Below, piece by piece: positions 6,997-28,456 of a stretch of DNA of 28,813 nt (positions are counted from its first letter, which is position 1; each line of letters opens with the position of its first letter). Source of the stretch: Bacteroidia bacterium. GTDB taxonomy: Bacteria > Bacteroidota > Bacteroidia > B-17B0 > Aurantibacillaceae. Location of the stretch: assembly GCA_031428235.1 (NCBI GenBank), contig JANPOX010000602.1, positions 1 through 28,813 of the forward strand, given 5' to 3'. The translations under genes and the position numbers were made by a program. Under the pieces are notes generated by a model. The model searched no databases. It was not told the DNA's origin and saw only the letters and a list, made by a program, of their open reading frames with translations.

Positions 6997-8517
6997 ATGT
7001 TAAAAAGAAATTTAGCCGACCTTAAGTCGGGAATAGTAGTGTTTTTAGTGGCTTTGCCTTTGTGTTTGGGTATTGCTTTGGCGTGTGGAGTGCCCTTATT
7101 TTCAGGAATTATAGCAGGTGTTATAGGTGGAATAATCGTAACTTCATTAAGCGGCTCAAAATACAGTGTATCTGGTCCGGCAGCGGGCTTAACAGCCATA
7201 GTAATTTCCTCAATTGCACAATTAGGAAGTTTCGATGCGTTTTTGGCAGCTGTAGTTTTTGCAGGTATTTTTCAAATAATATTAGGTATTTTAAAAGCGG
7301 GAAGTATTGGAAATTATATTCCTAATGCCGTTATTAAAGGTATGCTGGCCGGTATAGGAATTATTTTGATTATTAAGCAAATTCCTCATTTGTTTGGATA
7401 TGATAAAGATCCTGAAGGGGATGAACAATTTGTGCAAATCGACGGCGAAAATTCATTTACGGAGTTAGTCAACATGATAAATTTTATAACTCCGGGCGCT
7501 ATTATTGTGGGAGTGGTTTCGTTTATTGTATTAATTATTGCAGAAAAGGATTTTTATAAGAAAAATAAAATCTTGGTAAATATACCAGGGCCTCTGTTAG
7601 TTGTAATTTTCGGCGTTTTATTTACCATCATTTTTAAGGCAGAACCTTTTCTGGCTATAGATTCACAACACCTTGTTAATTTACCTACTATTTCAACTTT
7701 TGCAGATTTAAAAAGCAATCTTTTTTTTCCGGATTTTAGTAAAGCAACTACCACTACATTCTGGATTATTGCTTTAACGTTGGCCATAGTGGCAAGTTTG
7801 GAAACCTTATTGGGTATTGAAGCTATTGATAAATTAGATCCTGACAAAAATGAGTCAAACACTAATAAGGAATTATTTGCACAGGGTATTGGTAATATTG
7901 CCTGTGGTTTAGTTGGTGGTTTACCGGTTACATCCGTTATTGTTCGAAGTTCGGCAAACATCCATGCAGGTGCAAAATCAAAAATATCGGTGATACTGCA
8001 TGCTGTTTTACTTTTAGTGAGTGTGCTTTTGTTGCCTCAGTTATTAGCGCTCATCCCAAACGCATGTTTAGCGGCCATTTTAATTATGACAGGATTTAAA
8101 CTTACCAAAGTGGCAATTTTTAAGGAACAATGGAAATTTGGTTTGGAACAATTTATTCCTTTTGTAATTACTATTACAGTAATGCTTTTGACCGATTTAT
8201 TAAAAGGAGTTTGTGCCGGTGTTTTGGTATCAGTGATTTTTATTATCCGGGATAATATTAAATTTTCATTTGAATCAAGCAACGAGATCATGGATGGCAA
8301 AGAATACTATCTTATAAAATTACCACAACAAGTTACTTTTTTTAACAAAGGATTTCTGATCAAATTTTTTAAATCAGTGAGGGAAGACAGTAAGGTTATC
8401 ATTGATGGAAGCATTAATAAGAGTATTAATAGGGATGCAAGAGATGTTATTTCGGATTTTGTGATCAATAGCAAAAAGAAGAATATTGATGTAGAATTAT
8501 TTAAGTATCATAAGTAA
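6997..8517 (+). CDS. sulP: SulP/SLC26 family anion (probably bicarbonate) transporter with short STAS-like C-terminus
   Basis: DLKSGIVVFLVALPLCLGIALA, VSGPAAGL, ASLETLL, NKELFAQGIGN, VIVRSSAN motifs; adjacent to a carbonic anhydrase. Confidence 0.92.
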   Translation: MLKRNLADLKSGIVVFLVALPLCLGIALACGVPLFSGIIAGVIGGIIVTSLSGSKYSVSGPAAGLTAIVISSIAQLGSFDAFLAAVVFAGIFQIILGILKAGSIGNYIPNAVIKGMLAGIGIILIIKQIPHLFGYDKDPEGDEQFVQIDGENSFTELVNMINFITPGAIIVGVVSFIVLIIAEKDFYKKNKILVNIPGPLLVVIFGVLFTIIFKAEPFLAIDSQHLVNLPTISTFADLKSNLFFPDFSKATTTTFWIIALTLAIVASLETLLGIEAIDKLDPDKNESNTNKELFAQGIGNIACGLVGGLPVTSVIVRSSANIHAGAKSKISVILHAVLLLVSVLLLPQLLALIPNACLAAILIMTGFKLTKVAIFKEQWKFGLEQFIPFVITITVMLLTDLLKGVCAGVLVSVIFIIRDNIKFSFESSNEIMDGKEYYLIKLPQQVTFFNKGFLIKFFKSVREDSKVIIDGSINKSINRDARDVISDFVINSKKKNIDVELFKYHK

Positions 8518-8539
8518 AAATCTAAAGGAATTTATAAAA

Positions 8540-9202
8540 ATGGAATCAATGAACGAATCATATCAGCGGTTATTAGAGGGAAATAAGCGCTTTTCTATGT
8601 CTAAAAAATTTGAAGACCCTTTATATTTTAAAAAACTATCTTTAGGACAGAGGCCTGATTATTTGTGGATAGGCTGTAGCGATAGCCGTGTGCCTGCCAA
8701 TGAAGTAACCAATACAGAAAGTGGTGAAATTTTTGTACACCGGAATATTGCTAATTTAGTGGTACACACCGATATGAATTTGTTGAGCGTGCTTGAGTAT
8801 GCCGTAAAATTTTTGGGAGTGAAGCATGTTATAGTTTGTGGCCATTATGGTTGTGGCGGAATTAAAGCTGCTATTGGCAACGAGCGTCATGGTTTTGTAG
8901 ATAACTGGTTACGAAACATAAAAGATGTTTATAATAAATACTCATCGGAACTGGATGTAATTGCGGATATAGATAAGCGCATGGATCGCCTCACCGAATT
9001 AAATGTAATTGAGCAAGTACGTAATTTAGCAATGACCACTATCGTTCAGGATGCATGGGAAACAAGGGAATTGCATTTACACGGATGGGTATATGGAATC
9101 AATAACGGATTGGTAACCGATTTGAGTATTATACACGATGGAACAGAAGACATTGAACCGATTTACAGATTTAACATCGATAGGGTTAAAAAGAATCACT
9201 AG
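8540..9202 (+). CDS. can: Beta-class carbonic anhydrase
   Basis: WIGCSDSRVP (CxDxR), FVHRNIAN, VCGHYGCGG (HxxC) zinc-ligand motifs; C-terminal LHGWVY. Confidence 0.96.
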   Translation: MESMNESYQRLLEGNKRFSMSKKFEDPLYFKKLSLGQRPDYLWIGCSDSRVPANEVTNTESGEIFVHRNIANLVVHTDMNLLSVLEYAVKFLGVKHVIVCGHYGCGGIKAAIGNERHGFVDNWLRNIKDVYNKYSSELDVIADIDKRMDRLTELNVIEQVRNLAMTTIVQDAWETRELHLHGWVYGINNGLVTDLSIIHDGTEDIEPIYRFNIDRVKKNH

Positions 9203-9223
9203 TTTATTACCAGCCTTGAACAT

Positions 9224-9261
9224 AAAAAAATACCTCGACGGAATGTTGAGGTATTTTTTTT
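9224..9261. terminator. Bidirectional rho-independent terminator between convergent can and rsmA
   Basis: A7-TACCTCGAC-GGAAT-GTTGAGGTA-T8. Confidence 0.88.
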
Positions 9262-9288
9262 GTTATTCATTAAATCTTTTAAAAATAT

Positions 9289-10065
9289 TTATTTTTTAAT
9301 GGCCTGCTCAATCGCATTGGTTAACTCTACAAATTCGTTCACTGATAATTGCTCTGCTCTTTTGTCAAGGTATACAGATTCAACGGTATGGTTTCCGCTT
9401 AATACTTTAACGGAATTACGCACCGTCTTTCTCCGTTGATTAAAAGAAGCCTTGACTACTTTGAAAAACAGTTCCTCATCGCAATTAAGCTTTGTAGTTG
9501 TATTTCGTGTTAAGCGAATAACTGCCGATTTTACTTTGGGAGGCGGATTAAATACATGCTCGCTGACTGTAAATAAATATTCAATCTTATAAAAGGCCTG
9601 TAGCATTACGCTTAAAATGCCATAAGTTTTTGTGCCCGGTTTTTCGGCAATGCGTTGGGCCACTTCCCTCTGAAACATTCCTACCACACAATTGATGTTG
9701 CTTCGGTATTCCAATACCTTAAACATAATTTGCGTGGATATATTATAAGGAAAATTTCCAATCAGGTAAAAATTACCGGCGCTGGCAAAAGGAGAAAGAT
9801 CGGCTTCTAAAAAATCCTGGAACTTAAATTTATGTTCATGCTGTGGATATTTTTCTTTTAAAAATGCTATGGATTCTGCGTCGATATCAAAGGCTGTGAA
9901 ATTATCCTTCTCGATCATGTACTGCGTAATTACACCTGTTCCCGGACCAACCTCCAAAATAGGCGTGTTATCCTTAGGTAAAGAATTGACAATTTTTTGC
10001 GCAATATTTAAATCAATTAAAAAATGCTGGCCTAAATGTTTCTTTGCTTTTACGGGTGATGCCAC
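9289..10065 (-). CDS. rsmA: 16S rRNA m6,2A dimethyltransferase RsmA/KsgA
   Basis: KKHLGQHFL, LEVGPGTG, GNFPYNIS, MFQREVA, FNPPPKVKS, FNQRRK motifs; GTG start. Confidence 0.97.
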   Translation of the reverse strand: MASPVKAKKHLGQHFLIDLNIAQKIVNSLPKDNTPILEVGPGTGVITQYMIEKDNFTAFDIDAESIAFLKEKYPQHEHKFKFQDFLEADLSPFASAGNFYLIGNFPYNISTQIMFKVLEYRSNINCVVGMFQREVAQRIAEKPGTKTYGILSVMLQAFYKIEYLFTVSEHVFNPPPKVKSAVIRLTRNTTTKLNCDEELFFKVVKASFNQRRKTVRNSVKVLSGNHTVESVYLDKRAEQLSVNEFVELTNAIEQAIKK

Positions 10066-22311: not shown

Positions 22312-22351
22312 GCAAAGAAGCCATCCGCTAAGTAGCGGATGGCTTCTTTGC
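22312..22351. terminator. Long hairpin terminator after recQ
   Basis: Perfect inverted repeat GCAAAGAAGCCATCCGCT-AAGT-AGCGGATGGCTTCTTTGC; GC core followed by TTCTTT. Confidence 0.8.
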
Positions 22352-22498: not shown

Positions 22499-24586
22499 AT
22501 GACTTTTTTCTGTAAAAAATGTAACATTATTGCCTTTTTAGTTGGCTTGTTTATCTGTCATGAGAATATTATGATGGGACAAAACAAGGATGAAATAGTA
22601 TCCTCGTATATTAAAAGTTTAACAGAAACCTGGAATGAGTTTAATACACAAACTTTTTCCTCTTACATCATTGATACAACGGCCACATTAAAATCAGAGC
22701 CATTTAAAATAGATCAAAAGTCTTTGGTTGATAACCGCACTAAAATGCAGCTGAGGTTAAATCAATTGCAGCAAACCATCAATAAAAAAGATGTGGGTTT
22801 GCATGCAACGGTTAATTACCAGGAAAATTTTAATAACCCGATTGTTGACCCCGAAGAATTCGTTGTTTTTAAACGGCGTGCTATCGCCGGATTCGATTGG
22901 GATATTTTAAGCAATGGATTTTATGAAAGCAGGCTGAGAAACAAAATACTGAAACTGAATTACGAAACATTGGAAAAAAAGCAACAGACAGAAAAACTGA
23001 ACGCTTTTCAGAATGCTCAGACAGCGCAGATCATTGCTTACTTTAATATTAAAAAAATTGAAATTTTAAATGTCCGAAAAAATCTGAATAACAAACAAGT
23101 TCCGGTGATCGAAAAATTGTGGGCCATTAAGCACATCACAAAAGATAATTATTTAAAAGCGCTTCAAAACACCACAGATATAAACGCCCAGTATAATATT
23201 TATCAGAATTATAATCAGGCCAGGGCAAATGGAAAGACTTTTGATTTTGAATTACCGATCCTTGATATTAATATTCAACAGCTTTTACAAAAAGCAAACA
23301 TTTCCACGTTTGATTCAACGGCTAATGATGCCACACGTCTTGCTAAATATCAATCCTCTTATTTAAAAGATGTGAGTTTAAAGGCATACACCCGTTATAA
23401 TTATTATGATGTAAGTAATGCGAACCAACCAAATAGATCTTTTGTTTCTATAGGGATGAATTTATCTATGCCGTTGGCGTTTAATCAAAAAGATAAAAAG
23501 GCCTTTTACCTGCTTCAGCAACAACTGACCATTGCAAAAGAAGAAATTGATTCTGTTGATTTCGAAGCATCGATCTTAAATAAATATTATGAGTATCAAT
23601 ATAAATTGAAGCAATTTAAAAACCTATATCATAAGCGATTGGTATTTGAAGAACTACTAAGAACTGAGCGTGCAAAGCAACAATTTGATGACATGGAGTT
23701 TAATCCCAATACGGCTTTGTTTATATTGGATGATTATTGGAGCAACGCGATTGAATTACTGGATTTAAAACAGGATCTTTATAAAATTCTCCTTGACTTG
23801 AAAACAAGAATGCCGGCGGTTCAGATATCTGAGTATACCAGCTCGTTGAATTTATCCAATCTGAATATAGCTTCCAGTAATCCCCCATTTAAAGCTGTTT
23901 ATATTTGGAGCGATGCCTTTAAGAATAACTCCCAAACCGTTATTAATGAGTATTGCAAGGTCAATGAATTTAATCCTTTGCTGATCTCATATAATCCCGG
24001 TAAAGCATATGTGTTGCAAATTTCTGATTTTATTTCGAAGAATCACGGTACACCGGTACACTTAATGATCGGAAGTAACAAGTTGTTGCAAACAGGTATT
24101 AGTGGATTTTTAGATACCTTAAAAATGAACATGAACCTGTCATACATTAAAGGCATTCATTTGGATATTGAGCCGCATACTTTCCCTGACTTTAAAGAAA
24201 ATAAAGAGCAGTATTTCAAAAAATATATTCAGCTGTTAAAACAGGCAAAACAATTTACAGATAAAAACCATCTGGAACTATCTGTTTCCATTCCTTTAAA
24301 TTATCCCGAAGAGGTTTTAACAGAATTAAATACACTCTGCAATTATGTTTATTTAATGGCTTACGAAAATGTTGACCCTGATTTTATTTCCAGGAAAACC
24401 TTAGAGGAAAAAGCAATACTGAAAAGTAAATGCGTTTTAGCATTAAGAACAAAAGATTTTGAGAACAGGAACAGCATGGATGAAGCTTTAAAAAAATCCG
24501 GTTTTGATAAATCCGCATACCATGATCTGGATGACCTAATCAAATTTGACAACCAAAGTATTAACGTGAAGGAAGGCAACAAGTAA
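22499..24586 (+). CDS. TolC/OEP-like outer-membrane channel fused to a C-terminal GH18-like (beta/alpha)8 domain
   Basis: Signal-like N-terminus; two OEP-type repeats (strand pairs VGLHATVNYQENF/RRAIAGFDWDIL and DVSLKAYTRYNYY/FVSIGMNLSMPL, each followed by long amphipathic helices); aa ~462-695 with alternating strands AVYIW, VHLMIG, GIHLDIEP, LSVSIP, VYLMAYE. Confidence 0.65.
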   Translation: MTFFCKKCNIIAFLVGLFICHENIMMGQNKDEIVSSYIKSLTETWNEFNTQTFSSYIIDTTATLKSEPFKIDQKSLVDNRTKMQLRLNQLQQTINKKDVGLHATVNYQENFNNPIVDPEEFVVFKRRAIAGFDWDILSNGFYESRLRNKILKLNYETLEKKQQTEKLNAFQNAQTAQIIAYFNIKKIEILNVRKNLNNKQVPVIEKLWAIKHITKDNYLKALQNTTDINAQYNIYQNYNQARANGKTFDFELPILDINIQQLLQKANISTFDSTANDATRLAKYQSSYLKDVSLKAYTRYNYYDVSNANQPNRSFVSIGMNLSMPLAFNQKDKKAFYLLQQQLTIAKEEIDSVDFEASILNKYYEYQYKLKQFKNLYHKRLVFEELLRTERAKQQFDDMEFNPNTALFILDDYWSNAIELLDLKQDLYKILLDLKTRMPAVQISEYTSSLNLSNLNIASSNPPFKAVYIWSDAFKNNSQTVINEYCKVNEFNPLLISYNPGKAYVLQISDFISKNHGTPVHLMIGSNKLLQTGISGFLDTLKMNMNLSYIKGIHLDIEPHTFPDFKENKEQYFKKYIQLLKQAKQFTDKNHLELSVSIPLNYPEEVLTELNTLCNYVYLMAYENVDPDFISRKTLEEKAILKSKCVLALRTKDFENRNSMDEALKKSGFDKSAYHDLDDLIKFDNQSINVKEGNK

Positions 24587-24587
24587 G

Positions 24588-25703
24588 ATGAAAAGCATAA
24601 ACTTCCAGAGAAACAAATCATTGATCCGCGTTGTTAATGAGCAAAAAGTAAAAAAGAAAAAACAACGTAACTGGGACAGAATTCTTTATATAGGCTTACT
24701 CTTGACTTTCATCCTTTTCATGTTTTACTATTTCTTTTTTAAGTTTGTGTATGTGCACGCCTTTGGCCATGTTATAATCGAAAACACGCACATTCGCTTA
24801 ACGGATGATGCCCGCGTGATAGAATTTTATGTGAATGAAGGCGATAGTATCCAAAAAAATGATACTTTATTTTCATATGCTCTTGATCGGGATGATGACA
24901 TCAACGGACAATCATCTCTGAGTATTGGTTCCATTACTGCTGCTGGAAAAGACGAATGGTGGGTGAAAGAATTATTTGCTCTGAAAAAGAAAATCGTTTT
25001 AAACAACATTGATGTTTCTGAAAACGGTAATCTTATCGCTAATTATAAAACTGAGATCAAGCGATTAAGTAATGAAGTGATTCTTGATGTGATGCCAAAA
25101 AGCAGACTGGAGTTTGTACAAAATGAAATCTTCCGATTAAATACTGAAAATCAAAAACTTCAAAAGGAAAATAGTGAGTTAAATGGATTGATCAAAACAT
25201 TGGGGCCAACCACCAATAAAAATAAGTACAGTGCTTCCAACATTCGGTTAAAAAACGGCTCTAGAGGTTTAACTGAACTGAGTAAGCTGGCATTCAGTGA
25301 GGAGTTATTGTCAGAACCCAAATATTTTAAATCCCCGATCAGTGGCGTTTCTACCCGCATCTTTATTCATAATTACGAAACGGCTCTAAAGAGCGAAGAA
25401 ATTATGTCCATTCACCAGGCCCATCCTGCTTTTATAAAAGCCTATTTTGAACAGGAGGATTTGCGGTATTTTAAGGTAGGCGATGAATTTGAAATAAAAT
25501 TTCCTGATGGAACAACCAGTATCGGGATCCTGAAACGGTTTTATATTGCTACTTATACGTTGCCTGAAGAGTTCCAAAAAAAATACGAGCCAACCACACG
25601 AAGCATTGCCGCGGATATTTACCCGGCAGATTCACTTGAGATAAAGAAATGGCATGCGTTTTACAAAATGAGTGTGGATATATCAAAATTAAAATTTAAC
25701 TAG
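24588..25703 (+). CDS. HlyD-family membrane-fusion (periplasmic adaptor) protein
   Basis: Single N-terminal TM; lipoyl-like half VIEFYVNEGDSIQKNDTLF; coiled coil; second half KSPISGV; beta-barrel IKAYFEQEDLRYFKVGD. Confidence 0.8.
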   Translation: MKSINFQRNKSLIRVVNEQKVKKKKQRNWDRILYIGLLLTFILFMFYYFFFKFVYVHAFGHVIIENTHIRLTDDARVIEFYVNEGDSIQKNDTLFSYALDRDDDINGQSSLSIGSITAAGKDEWWVKELFALKKKIVLNNIDVSENGNLIANYKTEIKRLSNEVILDVMPKSRLEFVQNEIFRLNTENQKLQKENSELNGLIKTLGPTTNKNKYSASNIRLKNGSRGLTELSKLAFSEELLSEPKYFKSPISGVSTRIFIHNYETALKSEEIMSIHQAHPAFIKAYFEQEDLRYFKVGDEFEIKFPDGTTSIGILKRFYIATYTLPEEFQKKYEPTTRSIAADIYPADSLEIKKWHAFYKMSVDISKLKFN

Positions 25704-25706
25704 GCT

Positions 25707-27149
25707 ATGGATAAAACGTTAGCGAATAATAAAGTTGAATTTCATGATAATATTTTAACATGCTTTGGTAAAACATTCTTTTATTTTGAATCCTTTAGTT
25801 CATTAAAGATTGATGATCTTGAAAAATACGACGCGATCATCATCGATGCCAGAGACGTAGAATTCACACGCATCATTATCAAAAAATTCCGCAGTCATTC
25901 AAATATGGAATTTTATCTGAAACCACTTTTTTTAATTAATAATAAAGTCACAGATGATCCATATATAAAAGAATTGGCGGATGGCATCATCATGTCTTTT
26001 GATCAGATACCTGAAACAATCAATGATATAAATCAGATTAACATGAAGATTACGCGACTTGAAAGTTCGCCAACTTCATCTTTTGAGATTCAGGTATTTA
26101 AAAAAGCGCTGAACTTTATGTTTACCCGTGAAATCAATACGTTAAAACCTATTACAGATATTAACTCTACTATAGGCTATTGTTATCCTGTAATTTCCGT
26201 GAATTTTGAAGCCTTTGAAGAAGCAAAAGTTATTGAAATTTTAGAATGGGCCGAAAAAGAACATTTGATATGGCCTGATTTCCAGGACAGGGTTTATTTG
26301 TGCAGTAATTGCAAAGGGGGCCATCTGTCTTTTAGGGAAATATGCCCTAATTGTGATTCGGCAAATATGCGGTCAGAAGATCTTGTTCATCATTTTCCTT
26401 GTGGATACATTGGAGCAATTAGTGATTTTAAAAACAACATTGATACTGTTTTAACTTGCCCTAAATGTTCCAAAAATTTACGACACATTGGTGTGGATTA
26501 TGATAAGCCTTCTATCATTAACCATTGTCATAATTGCAATGATGTTTTTCAGGATTATTTAGTAAAAGCAAAATGCATACAATGTAAAACTGATACCGAT
26601 GTGCAGTTCCTGATTTCGAAGGATATCAATCTGTATAAACTCACCAAAAAAGGAAGGAACTCTGCGGTGGGTGGAATTTACACGTCAGATTATGAATTGG
26701 ATCATGAAATTGCAGGTACATTGGATTTTAAAACGTTCTCAACCATGATGCATTATGAACAGGAAAGGACAAAGGCGAACGTGACACTCAGTTCAAACCT
26801 GGTAGTTTTTTACTTCGAGAATATTTTTGATTTATATAAGATAGTTAGTAAGTCTAAAGAAAAATCGTTGTTGGCAGAATTTGTAACGATCATTCGTGAT
26901 AACATCACCCCGGCCGATTTTATTTGCATCAATAATCCTTCCATCATCAGTATCTGTGTGAATGATGTAGCTTTGGAGGAAGCTAAGATCATGGTATTGA
27001 AAATTACGGATAAGATCGAGGAATTAGTGAGGGATAACTTCGAAAAATTTGAATTATCAGTTGTTTCGCAGGTTGCCTTATTGAGCAAAAGTCAATCTTT
27101 TGATAAGCAAATCCAATCTATTATTAAAGAGTTGGTTGAAAAAACATGA
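25707..27149 (+). CDS. TackOD1-like multi-zinc protein with degenerate receiver-like N-terminus and degenerate GGDEF-like C-terminus
   Basis: aa 199-293 carry CSNC, CPNC, HFPC, CPKC, CHNC, CIQC plus LRHIGVDYDKP; aa ~337-480 follow the GGDEF secondary-structure pattern without the signature. Confidence 0.7.
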   Translation: MDKTLANNKVEFHDNILTCFGKTFFYFESFSSLKIDDLEKYDAIIIDARDVEFTRIIIKKFRSHSNMEFYLKPLFLINNKVTDDPYIKELADGIIMSFDQIPETINDINQINMKITRLESSPTSSFEIQVFKKALNFMFTREINTLKPITDINSTIGYCYPVISVNFEAFEEAKVIEILEWAEKEHLIWPDFQDRVYLCSNCKGGHLSFREICPNCDSANMRSEDLVHHFPCGYIGAISDFKNNIDTVLTCPKCSKNLRHIGVDYDKPSIINHCHNCNDVFQDYLVKAKCIQCKTDTDVQFLISKDINLYKLTKKGRNSAVGGIYTSDYELDHEIAGTLDFKTFSTMMHYEQERTKANVTLSSNLVVFYFENIFDLYKIVSKSKEKSLLAEFVTIIRDNITPADFICINNPSIISICVNDVALEEAKIMVLKITDKIEELVRDNFEKFELSVVSQVALLSKSQSFDKQIQSIIKELVEKT

Positions 27150-28456
27150 TAGAAGCCGTTGACGGATTTTTTAGTTATATCTCAGCTGCCGGTCCCTCCA
27201 AGTTATTAAGAATATTCTGGTTTTTTGTTTTTTTTGAGTTCGCCCGTTTCTTTATTTTTGAATTAGCCGTTCTAATCATCTGGAAATTGCGTGAACCGCA
27301 ACGCAAAGAACGTTATAGTAACGCCAGAAGACGATTGTTTATTGAACGCCCTTTAGTTTCTGTAATTGTTCCAGGAAAAAATGAAGGGTTGCACATTTTT
27401 AAATTGGCCAATTCCTTAAAAGAACAAAGTTATACCAATTTTGAGTTTATAGTAATTGATGATGGTTCTGATGACGATACAGAGCGGATCTGTAAGAGTC
27501 TTCAGAAAAACGGGTTTATTGATTTATTTTTAAGAAATGATGTTAGGGGCGGAAAAGCATCAGCAGCTAATTTAGGTTATCGGTTTTCCAAAGGAAAAAT
27601 TATTGTCCATTTGGATGCAGATTGTAGTTATGATAATGATGCCATTGAAAAAATCATTATTCCTTTTTATCTGGATGATGCCATTGGTGCAGTTGGTGGA
27701 AATATTTTGGTCAGAAATTATAAAGATAGTTTATGTGCCACTTTGCAGGCGATAGAGTATTCTGATACCATTTCAGTTGGACGAATCACTTCCAGTTATT
27801 TGGGTATTTACAGGTTGGTGTCGGGAGCTTTTGGTGCATTTAAACGCGAAGCGCTTGATCGTGTAGGTGGCTGGGATATCGGACCTGGGTTAGATGGTGA
27901 TATAACGGTAAAATTACGAAAGCTAGGATATTTAATTGTATTTGAATCGGAAGCTGTTTGTCAGACAAGTGTGCCGGACACTTTCAGGAAATTAGTTAAG
28001 CAGCGTTTACGATGGGATAAATCCATTATTCGTTTCAGAGTCAGAAAACACCGCGATGTGTTTTATCCAAATGCTACCTTTCGCTTTTCAAATTTTGTAT
28101 CCAGTGCAGAAAATATTACCTATAATTTGTTGTTAAATATAAAATGGTGGATCTACCTGGTAGACATGGTTGTTAATTACACTTCTTTGCTGGCTTTTGT
28201 TTTTCCATTTAATATTTTGCTGTATACCGTTAATAATTTTTTGAAGTTTTTGGTATTTTCTTTATTCAGAAAGAGAAAAAATTCCTCGATTATTTATTTT
28301 ATTCCTTACTTACCACTCATGGTATTGTATTTTGGATTTTATTTAAGGTTAGTGCGTTCTGTAGCTTATGTACAGGAGTTCTTTTTTAAGCGTTCTTATA
28401 AAGATGCATGGAACCCGGCAAAGTCTTCCAATCATGCAAAAAAACTGGGAATTTAA
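27146..28456 (+). CDS. Processive membrane GT2 glycosyltransferase (PgaC/IcaA/NodC/HAS-like)
   Basis: DDG (105-107), GKA, DAD (157-159), SGAFGAF, D250, QRLRW (286-290); N-terminal and C-terminal TM segments. Confidence 0.92.
   Translation: MIEAVDGFFSYISAAGPSKLLRIFWFFVFFEFARFFIFELAVLIIWKLREPQRKERYSNARRRLFIERPLVSVIVPGKNEGLHIFKLANSLKEQSYTNFEFIVIDDGSDDDTERICKSLQKNGFIDLFLRNDVRGGKASAANLGYRFSKGKIIVHLDADCSYDNDAIEKIIIPFYLDDAIGAVGGNILVRNYKDSLCATLQAIEYSDTISVGRITSSYLGIYRLVSGAFGAFKREALDRVGGWDIGPGLDGDITVKLRKLGYLIVFESEAVCQTSVPDTFRKLVKQRLRWDKSIIRFRVRKHRDVFYPNATFRFSNFVSSAENITYNLLLNIKWWIYLVDMVVNYTSLLAFVFPFNILLYTVNNFLKFLVFSLFRKRKNSSIIYFIPYLPLMVLYFGFYLRLVRSVAYVQEFFFKRSYKDAWNPAKSSNHAKKLGI

Follow-up and report, generated by a model that had tools for sequence, protein, structure and literature searches.

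Exopolysaccharides such as cellulose, alginate, Pel and PNAG are produced by synthase-dependent systems, which play a central part in the biology of biofilms. The well-characterised systems have a porin or a TPR protein as the exit for the polymer and, as a separate protein, a periplasmic hydrolase or lyase. Only two polymers have so far been proposed to leave through an adaptor and TolC, namely cyanobacterial cellulose and, in 2026, a rhizobial glucan; both rely on a housekeeping TolC that is unlinked to the synthase genes. For cyanobacterial cellulose, the proposed route consists of a synthase, a HlyD-like adaptor and TolC, with a separate endoglucanase, XcsC (PMC12430437), and the production of the rhizobial mixed-linkage glucan genetically requires tolC (PMC13438883). 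Furthermore, the MxdABCD system of Shewanella oneidensis comprises a c-di-GMP effector (MxdA), a GT2 (MxdB), a homologue of efflux-pump adaptors (MxdC) and a protein of unknown type (MxdD), all four of which are needed for a three-dimensional biofilm (PMC3691769, PMC7666153).

A four-gene cassette with its own TolC-type channel

The window considered in the present work is the whole stretch of DNA that was analysed, a contig of 28,813 nucleotides from a member of the Bacteroidia. On its forward strand, an open reading frame at positions 22499-24586, open throughout, codes for a product of 695 residues made up of three parts: a signal peptide, an outer-membrane factor of the TolC fold, and a compact (beta/alpha)8 barrel. 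It is followed, on the same strand, by the genes for a HlyD/EmrA-like periplasmic adaptor, i.e., a membrane fusion protein (24588-25703), for a cytoplasmic TackOD1 protein with a multi-CxxC zinc ribbon (25707-27149), and for a membrane GT2 synthase of the processive type (27146-28456). The junctions are tight: 1 nt separates the fusion gene from the adaptor gene and 3 nt separate the latter from the TackOD1 gene, which overlaps the GT2 gene by 4 nt. Upstream, a perfect inverted repeat with arms of 18 bp and a loop of 4 nt (22312-22351, forward strand), read directly from the sequence, begins 18 nt past the stop codon of a RecQ-like gene and is likely a terminator marking the start of the operon; a simple terminator scan did not call it, because no T-tract follows the repeat.

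The adaptor carries an N-terminal membrane anchor and gave weak matches to EmrA/EmrK (E = 2.5e-4) and to HlyD_D23, and a language-model look-up placed it with HlyD-family clusters at 0.97-0.99. The TackOD1 protein (Pfam TackOD1, E = 2e-51) is presumed to be a regulator or a receptor. As for the GT2, it matches Pfam Glycos_transf_2 and Chitin_synth_2, harbors the QxxRW-type motif QRLRW, and matches the NodC model as well as NCBIfam PgaC_IcaA, the latter with E = 7e-49 and 167 bits, under the cut-off of 422. Judging from its sequence, it most resembles the synthases of GlcNAc polymers (the PgaC/IcaA, NodC and chitin synthase models), which agrees with an N-acetylhexosamine polymer and with the GlcNAc-containing polymer hinted at in the initial annotation of this DNA. 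A QxxRW-bearing GT2 and an adaptor are, in other words, encoded together with a TolC-type channel, as in a tripartite synthase-adaptor-TolC arrangement.

The order fusion, HlyD-like adaptor, TackOD1 protein and PgaC-like GT2 was found in all the loci with enough sequence among the 80 examined; the adaptor is always the second gene and the TackOD1 protein always the third, and the GT2 gene is the best conserved of the cassette, with 51-98% identity. A conserved fifth gene (deacetylase, second hydrolase or porin) was sought in the flanking regions of the 80 loci, and none occurred in more than 16 of them. These four genes probably represent an operon of the Bacteroidota for the synthesis and export of a sugar polymer of the biofilm type. 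The system was detected in 14 of the 401 Bacteroidota species genomes sampled (about 3%) and in 14 of the 53 sampled genomes of the source genus (about a quarter), and is therefore an accessory trait.

The cassette shares with XcsA-XcsB-TolC and XcsC a GT2 synthase, a membrane fusion protein adaptor, a TolC-type channel and a dedicated, here putative, glycoside hydrolase. In the Xcs system, however, TolC is unlinked and the hydrolase is separate and belongs to another family, whereas here the channel is encoded in the operon and fused to a GH18-like barrel; moreover, the Xcs synthase has a PilZ domain and its polymer is cellulose, whereas here the presumed regulator is the TackOD1 protein. Rhizobial BgsA-BgsB-TolC is similar in its GT2 synthase, its HlyD-family adaptor and the need of TolC for the polymer, but it relies on a housekeeping TolC, has no known hydrolase and produces a glucan, and c-di-GMP binds to the synthase itself. 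The likeness to Mxd (SO4180-SO4177 in S. oneidensis) rests on published descriptions, and no TolC-barrel fusion is described for that system. In the PNAG system, PgaA is a 16-strand porin with TPRs, in contrast to the TolC-type channel found here, and a CE4 deacetylase domain is part of PgaB, a lipoprotein in its own right, whereas the cassette encodes no deacetylase.

The channel and its fusion to the barrel

The first 27 residues (22499-22579, forward strand), basic and then hydrophobic, represent a predicted signal peptide, with cleavage before Q28, a residue kept in at least 90% of the 80 full-length homologues. A glutamine at the cleavage site corresponds to the Bacteroidetes "Q-rule" for signal peptidase I substrates (PMC5837995). 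The channel follows (residues 28-455; 22580-23863, forward strand) and matches Pfam OEP (PF02321) in two stretches, with 26.9 bits against a cut-off of 22. In the model of the full-length protein (pLDDT 90.8), a TolC-type repeat occurs twice, with two barrel strands in each copy (residues 101-109 and 124-135 in the first, 293-305 and 313-323 in the second) and long tunnel helices (141-209 and 330-395); as in the TolC family, this order of elements would leave both termini in the periplasm. When this model was compared with the PDB by Foldseek, the top 38 matches were all TolC-family channels (TolC, CusC, SilC, OprM, CmeC and others), with E-values down to 9e-13 and a TM-score by target of 0.55-0.66. 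The family model and the predicted fold agree in assigning this region to the TolC-type outer-membrane factors, and the two OEP-like repeats previously noticed in the sequence are borne out by both.

A short linker (residues 456-464; 23864-23890, forward strand) leads from the last equatorial element of the channel to the barrel; there the confidence of the model dips, the pLDDT falling to about 71 at residues 451-460. Some relatives have long insertions at this point, including a SPOR domain in one of them (P0180). SPOR binds the glycan strands of peptidoglycan, and its presence next to the barrel in some relatives could point to a peptidoglycan substrate.

A barrel acting on peptidoglycan, or binding to its GlcNAc-MurNAc backbone, might open the sacculus locally for the assembly of the machine or might anchor the channel. 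This we regard as unlikely: the SPOR variants that speak for it are a small minority, in which SPOR could be a mere anchor, and TolC systems of the ordinary kind work without a wall hydrolase of their own. Moreover, the domain is strictly linked to the GT2 synthase operon, and a hydrolase or lyase dedicated to the polymer being made is found in almost all synthase-dependent systems.

An uninterrupted fusion ORF of about 695 residues was retrieved in more than 190 protein clusters, and the fusion is present in the 80 genome loci wherever upstream sequence exists, as well as in two cultured isolates, Crocinitomix catalasitica ATCC 23190 (locus L069, ORF 7663-9693) and C. algicola 0182; a literature search for a published TolC-hydrolase fusion found nothing relevant. 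A Pseudomonadota cluster labelled "TolC family" has the same barrel. The source of the window is a contig of 28.8 kb from a fragmented MAG (753 contigs, 89% complete, 7% contamination), and in one assembly (L112) the two parts are overlapping ORFs, so one might suspect that an error of assembly or gene calling joined two genes. This can be dismissed almost with certainty, since the same ORF recurs in clusters from many sources, in the 80 loci and in the two isolates; the overlap in L112 is likely due to a frameshift error, because its TackOD1 gene is also split.

The initial annotation had raised the question of whether homologous operons encode the barrel as a separate gene, and no convincing case was found among the candidates examined. 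Two short forms lying beside operons (P0163 and P0170) begin at contig ends, and a third (P0147) comes from the assembly with the split TackOD1 gene, in which frameshift errors are likely. Only P0146 and P0218 are true stand-alone copies, and they lie outside any such operon. Such orphan barrels count against reading the domain as a polymer-export hydrolase.

The barrel and its likeness to GH18

The C-terminal barrel extends from residue 465 to residue 695 (23891-24583, forward strand); the pattern had previously been traced from about residue 462, which falls, as then placed, at nucleotide 23882. Its AlphaFold model (pLDDT 95, pTM 0.91) has eight strand-helix units and thus agrees with the (beta/alpha)8-type pattern noted earlier. 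Residues 455-695 did not match any family of Pfam and NCBIfam, and a phmmer search of the PDB retrieved a chance-level match only. Among solved folds, GH18 structures were the best VIA-align matches to the model; Foldseek put generic small TIM barrels ahead of GH18 (tryptophan synthase alpha, TM-score about 0.55). The PDB copies used for these fold searches do not include the 10yv entry discussed below. A metabolic function of the TrpA type was rejected, since the barrel, preceded by a signal peptide and a TolC fold, is an exported domain and its conserved residues do not fit such a function.

The segment GIHLDIEP occupies residues 552-559, with H554, D556 and E558 exactly where the initial annotation had them. 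The motif H554-L-D556-I-E558-P-H560 (24158-24178, forward strand), which contains the candidate catalytic D-x-E, lies at the C-terminal end of strand 4, and M620-A-Y622-E623 (24356-24367, forward strand), the counterpart of the GH18 MxYD motif, lies at the end of strand 6. Two independent profile alignments (the family profile versus the PDB, and hhalign versus GH18 proteins from related genomes) place H554, D556 and E558 on the last D-x-D-x-E of the GH18 signature DxxDxDxE, and MAYE on MxYD (MAYD/MSYD). The complete signature is absent: the sequence reads K-G-I-H-L-D-I-E, with the first two Asp missing and H554 at the place of the middle one; the motif retains just its last Asp and its Glu, both invariant, and the position of the first Asp is not conserved. 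In MxYD, E623 replaces the Asp. According to these alignments, both residues of the GH18 chemistry are kept and only a supporting Asp is replaced by His. The description of GIHLDIEP as a "half catalytic motif" is thus right in that D-x-E is present, but it undersells the site, which retains the chemistry residues and has an MxYD counterpart as well.

To check the conservation of these positions, 51 diverse homologues sharing 28-64% identity with the query were aligned, and W470, H554, D556, E558, P599 and Y622 are invariant among them; a lack of conservation of D556 and E558, which would have spoken against the annotation, was not observed. HxDxEP is present in 246 of the 264 relatives retrieved, a frequency that, on sequence grounds, is far above chance. 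M620 and Y622 are invariant in the 80 full-length homologues, and the strand 6 motif occurs as MAYE in 183 sequences, MCYE in 20 and MAYG in 14. All the invariant or near-invariant residues (W470, S471, N527, H554, D556, E558, H560, P599, M620, Y622, D653, F654, H675 and D676) are situated at or just past the C-terminal ends of the eight strands.

Chitinase-like lectins typically lack the catalytic Glu or Asp. A barrel of this type would be a non-catalytic glycan-binding or chaperone domain, holding or guiding the nascent polymer, or docking the adaptor, without cutting. The invariance of D556 and E558, the retention of HxDxEP in most relatives and that of Y622 and E623 argue against it, such strict conservation of acidic residues at strand ends being more typical of catalysis; we therefore give it a low probability.

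A different chemistry is conceivable, namely a metal-dependent de-N-acetylation, or a transglycosylation attaching the polymer to the cell surface. H554, D556, E558, H560, H675 and D676 could form a metal site, and many GH18 enzymes transglycosylate; moreover, export in the PNAG, Pel and galactosaminogalactan systems depends in each case on a deacetylase, and the operon encodes no CE4 deacetylase. We nevertheless consider either reaction quite improbable, given that no amidohydrolase or carbohydrate-esterase fold appeared among the top 50 structural matches, that GH18 is the only recurrent Pfam signal and that the motif register matches the GH18 catalytic residues.

Concerning the relation to GH18 itself, the query did not match PF00704 at E <= 1, and 11 of the 51 relatives scanned did (best E = 4.3e-6), PF00704 being the only Pfam family matched by many of them. 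Three relatives scanned singly scored 14-23 bits, against a cut-off of 29.6, over profile positions of about 87-185, i.e., the region of strands 4-6. When the family alignment was compared by hhalign with a narrow profile built on five GH18 proteins of related genomes, the register was as expected, with a probability of 2% and a pairwise E-value of 0.024, which is not significant, and the top named clusters of the language-model look-up were GH18 at 0.86-0.87, a lead only. By sequence, then, the barrel is not a member of GH18; the model suggests a (beta/alpha)8 domain that would be a remote relative of this family. Compared with GH18 enzymes (chitinases, endo-beta-N-acetylglucosaminidases, SleL/YaaH; PF00704), it is much smaller, with about 230 residues and no insertion domain, and, unlike them, it is fused to an outer-membrane channel.

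Among solved structures, significant sequence similarity to the family profile was limited to PDB 10yv (E = 8e-6, profile positions 25-148, matching motif QLDVEPWT), a stand-alone actinobacterial protein of 275 residues deposited as "Putative GH97 from Cellulomonas fimi", a label that fits its size poorly; a literature search for a publication on this entry or its label found nothing relevant. The C-terminal domain of PgaB (GH153) lacks the GH18 catalytic motif (PMC5933820), whereas the barrel described here keeps D-x-E, and its sequence did not match the GH153 family (Pfam GHL13).

Proposed role of the barrel and significance

We infer, with a probability of roughly 0.55, that a self-contained module for polysaccharide synthesis and export has this protein as its outer-membrane component and the barrel as its built-in periplasmic hydrolase, acting on an N-acetylhexosamine polymer. 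The GT2 of the inner membrane would polymerise and translocate a beta-linked, N-acetylhexosamine-containing polymer under the control of the TackOD1 protein on the cytoplasmic side; the membrane-anchored HlyD-like adaptor would span the periplasm, and a trimeric TolC-like channel would carry the chain across the outer membrane. The barrel would cut polymer escaping into the periplasm or stalled there, or would trim or release chains, that is, it may have the role held by BcsZ, AlgL, PelA, PslG, PgaB-C and XcsC in other synthase-dependent systems; unlike those hydrolases, it would be tethered one-to-one to the exit channel. Chain-length control or clearing, as suggested in the initial annotation, is likewise a putative function. 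GH18 enzymes hydrolyse beta-GlcNAc linkages by a retaining, substrate-assisted reaction beside an N-acetyl group, for which they use the residues of D-x-E and of M-x-Y with the acid that follows; the Tyr and this acid position the N-acetyl group.

The initial annotation had placed the barrels at the channel entrance, and this placement has to be revised. In the model, the barrel begins about 10 residues past the last equatorial strand (E447-449), a point that TolC-family proteins have on the outer face of the tunnel, roughly midway along its periplasmic part. The TolC topology and the order of the elements in the model thus suggest that the barrel is attached at the equatorial belt and lies outside the tunnel; since TolC-family chains have their C-terminal end in the equatorial domain, three periplasmic barrels would be expected in that position in a trimer. 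This speaks against the proposed role, because a barrel outside a sealed adaptor-channel conduit could not reach the chain inside.

More tentatively, and at somewhat under even odds, the barrel may represent a new GH family, a minimal offshoot of the GH18 lineage (H-x-D-x-E / M-x-Y-E) placed in the TolC-type exit of a widespread Bacteroidota pathway that would export an N-acetylhexosamine exopolysaccharide through a conduit resembling an efflux pump, with look-alikes in Pseudomonadota.

The cassette, which encodes its own TolC-type channel beside the synthase, with a hydrolase-type domain fused to it, provides strong genomic support for an adaptor-TolC route of polysaccharide export. It also represents a compact four-gene system for testing this route, which is experimentally accessible because it is present in cultured, non-pathogenic Crocinitomix strains. 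The barrel is a candidate for a new GH family, possibly a small biofilm-dispersing enzyme; if this were true, the protein would be the first outer-membrane factor bearing its own enzyme.

Gene organization and distribution of the cassette

The gene coding for the fusion protein (22499-24586, forward strand, 695 aa) is the first of four. Upstream of it lies a RecQ-like gene and, 18 nt past the stop codon of the latter, a perfect 18-bp inverted repeat with a 4-nt loop (22312-22351, forward strand), which is likely a terminator without a T-tract, setting recQ apart from the operon. The fusion gene is followed on the same strand by those coding for an HlyD/EmrA-like adaptor (24588-25703, after a 1-nt gap), a TackOD1 zinc-ribbon protein (25707-27149, after a 3-nt gap; Pfam E 2e-51), and a membrane GT2 with a QRLRW motif (27146-28456, overlapping the TackOD1 gene by 4 nt). 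The top models retrieved by the GT2 were PgaC/IcaA (167 bits, under the cut-off of 422), NodC, and chitin synthase. TackOD1 is a family of unknown function known from archaeal response regulators (PMC5847659); the third gene of the window codes for a bacterial TackOD1, strictly tied to the GT2 operon in all of the 80 loci described below with enough sequence.

The source MAG (Bacteroidota, 4.12 Mb, 89% complete) is fragmented into 753 contigs, the window being one whole 28.8-kb contig, and the initial annotation had named an assembly artefact as a possible origin of the fusion. The data obtained render this explanation extremely improbable: a word-indexed search retrieved 193 clusters, nearly all of 670-720 aa, and a scan of species-representative genomes yielded 253 confirmed loci, the best 80 of which (mostly labelled Bacteroidota) were fetched. 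Probing these loci by tblastn with five parts revealed that the barrel starts where the channel part stops, and the order fusion, adaptor, TackOD1, GT2 was intact in every one of the best 80 loci with enough sequence. Moreover, the cultured strains Crocinitomix catalasitica ATCC 23190 and C. algicola 0182 harbor uninterrupted fusion ORFs (676 and 693 aa, respectively), followed by the same three genes. Among the best 80 of the 253 loci, the GT2 is the best-conserved part (51-98% identity), and in the most distant ones conservation is lowest in the channel part; no additional conserved neighbour beyond the four genes was found in their flanks. Directly 3' of the GT2, 14 of about 65 loci (e.g., L004:13612-16257) encode a protein that combines a CotH kinase domain with a C-terminal T9SS sorting domain; the window contig stops short of the position where this gene would lie.

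The cassette is accessory, being present in 14 of the 53 genomes of the window's genus and in 14 of the 401 sampled Bacteroidota genomes, although six of the latter 14 gave weak partial matches only. The six genomes (G053, G063, G203, G283, G351, and G403), five of which belong to one family, gave partial barrel-profile matches only, within positions ~6-172 (E 1e-10 to 1e-13), in ORFs of 486-776 aa, and may harbor a more distant architecture.

Predicted structure of the channel and of the C-terminal barrel

The N-terminal part of the fusion matched Pfam OEP in two stretches (26.9 bits vs. a cut-off of 22). In the full-length AlphaFold model (80 homologues as input, pLDDT 90.8), the TolC order of elements, i.e., two barrel strands, a helix of ~67 residues, and a shorter helix, is present twice, and the top 38 Foldseek matches in the PDB are all TolC-family outer-membrane channels (TolC, CusC, SilC, OprM, CmeC, OprN, MtrE, and VceC among them). 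The protein begins with a signal peptide; Q28 is kept in at least 90% of the homologues, in agreement with the Bacteroidetes Q-rule, which applies to signal peptidase I substrates (PMC5837995).

Residues 455-695 matched nothing in Pfam or NCBIfam. When 1.84 billion representative proteins were searched exhaustively with HMMER, 394 relatives were retrieved (280 at E<1e-10), the majority being C-termini of ~690-aa proteins. The AlphaFold model built on an alignment of 51 diverse members (pLDDT 95, pTM 0.91) shows eight strand-helix units arranged as a compact barrel, supporting the TIM barrel proposed initially. Strand 4 ends in H554, D556, and E558, and strand 6 in M620-A-Y622-E623. The homologue alignment revealed that W470, H554, D556, E558, P599, and Y622 are invariant, and that Y468, S471, N527, P559, M620, D653, F654, H675, and D676 are nearly so; thus, the conservation expected for D556 and E558 holds, with HxDxEP in 246 of 264 retrieved relatives. 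Each of these residues sits at the C-terminal ends of the strands, where the active sites of TIM barrels are located.

The TolC-family chain terminates in the equatorial domain, outside the tunnel and about halfway down the periplasm, and in the full-length model the barrel begins ~10 residues past the last equatorial strand (E447-449). For this reason, a trimer would bear three barrels round the waist of the tunnel, and not at the periplasmic entrance of the channel, where they had previously been placed. A chain inside the sealed adaptor-channel conduit would be beyond their reach.

Relationship with GH18 and architectural variants

The family profile, searched against PDB sequences, matched 10yv, a 275-aa Cellulomonas fimi protein with the motif QLDVEPWT (E 8e-6), besides one chitinase and YaaH at chance level (E ~1); in the chitinase alignment, at this chance-level E, H-L-D-v-E stands opposite D-V-D-W-E, and MAYE opposite MAYD. 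The comparison by hhalign with five GH18 proteins from related genomes gave the identical register, but with a probability of 2%. PF00704, the sole Pfam family matched by many members, was retrieved by 11 of 51 (best E 4e-6), at profile positions ~87-185 (the strand 4-6 region) in three individually checked members; its scan of the window's fusion protein gave no match. Against GH18 count the absence of the first two Asp of DxxDxDxE and the Foldseek preference for tryptophan synthase alpha (TM ~0.55). The barrel is a remote, minimal GH18-like family and not a GH18 member; so qualified, the channel with a GH18-like barrel noticed initially is upheld by the OEP and TolC-family matches, the barrel model, and the conserved motifs. 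The Asp-x-Glu and Tyr-acid pairs, which serve substrate-assisted catalysis in GH18 enzymes, are retained; a non-catalytic binding domain is an unlikely alternative reading of the barrel, and other chemistry, e.g., deacetylation, a very unlikely one.

Some homologous proteins differ in architecture. P0139 (L111:318-3314) carries two tandem barrels behind the TolC part; the first (HLNVE/TCYE) has Asn at the catalytic-position Asp and, judging from its sequence, may be inactive, and the second retains the family motif. P0148, P0157, and P0193 have an N-terminal BNR/Ycf48-like beta-propeller ahead of the fusion. P0180 (L108:8001-11837), still gene 1 of the same four-gene operon, and P0201 (L110:17-3466) reach 1149-1278 aa through an insert of ~600 aa between TolC part and barrel, including a SPOR domain, which binds peptidoglycan. 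These variants, together with the equatorial position, suggest a peptidoglycan-directed enzyme or anchor, a role that we nevertheless consider improbable.

The barrel was not found as a genuinely separate gene in homologous operons, a possibility raised initially: stand-alone copies adjoining them are contig-edge truncations or probable frameshifts, and genuine orphan copies occur outside such operons. At L112:5424-11680 (GCA_965661625), both the fusion (534 + 286 aa, overlapping) and TackOD1 (310 + 101 aa) are split, probably by indel errors. Two barrel matches with a lone in-frame stop (G143:C1:270038-270757, TGA; G314:C40:56556-57263, TAG) could be pseudogenes or sequencing errors. In the ESM Atlas, shape searches found the barrel at the end of a 722-aa "putative TolC family protein" cluster, mostly from Pseudomonadota (TM 0.77), and behind Cu_amine_oxidN1 or dockerin domains in Bacillota (TM 0.82-0.84); one Pseudomonadota cluster joins a CE4 deacetylase and GH18, a PgaB-like layout.

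Possible role of the barrel in polysaccharide export

For cyanobacterial cellulose, XcsA-XcsB-TolC export has been proposed, with a separate endoglucanase, XcsC (PMC12430437), and genetic evidence indicates that in Sinorhizobium meliloti BgsA and BgsB need tolC to produce a mixed-linkage glucan (PMC13438883); in both systems, the synthase product would leave via an adaptor and TolC. By published description, Shewanella mxdABCD codes for a similar set of components, comprising a GT2 and a c-di-GMP effector in addition to an adaptor homologue and a protein of unknown type (PMC3691769, PMC7666153). In the literature searched, no report was found of a TolC-family protein that carries a glycoside-hydrolase-like domain, and the cassette seems to be uncharacterised there.

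We predict, with a probability of roughly 0.55, that the barrel is the periplasmic hydrolase of the system, acting on a beta-linked N-acetylhexosamine polymer; the role is suggested by analogy with BcsZ, AlgL, PelA, PslG, PgaB-C, and XcsC, and the polymer by the GH18-type residues together with the PgaC/NodC/chitin-synthase-like GT2. Such a hydrolase, tethered stoichiometrically to the exit channel, would either clear polymer that stalls in the periplasm or leaks into it, or else trim the chains and release them.
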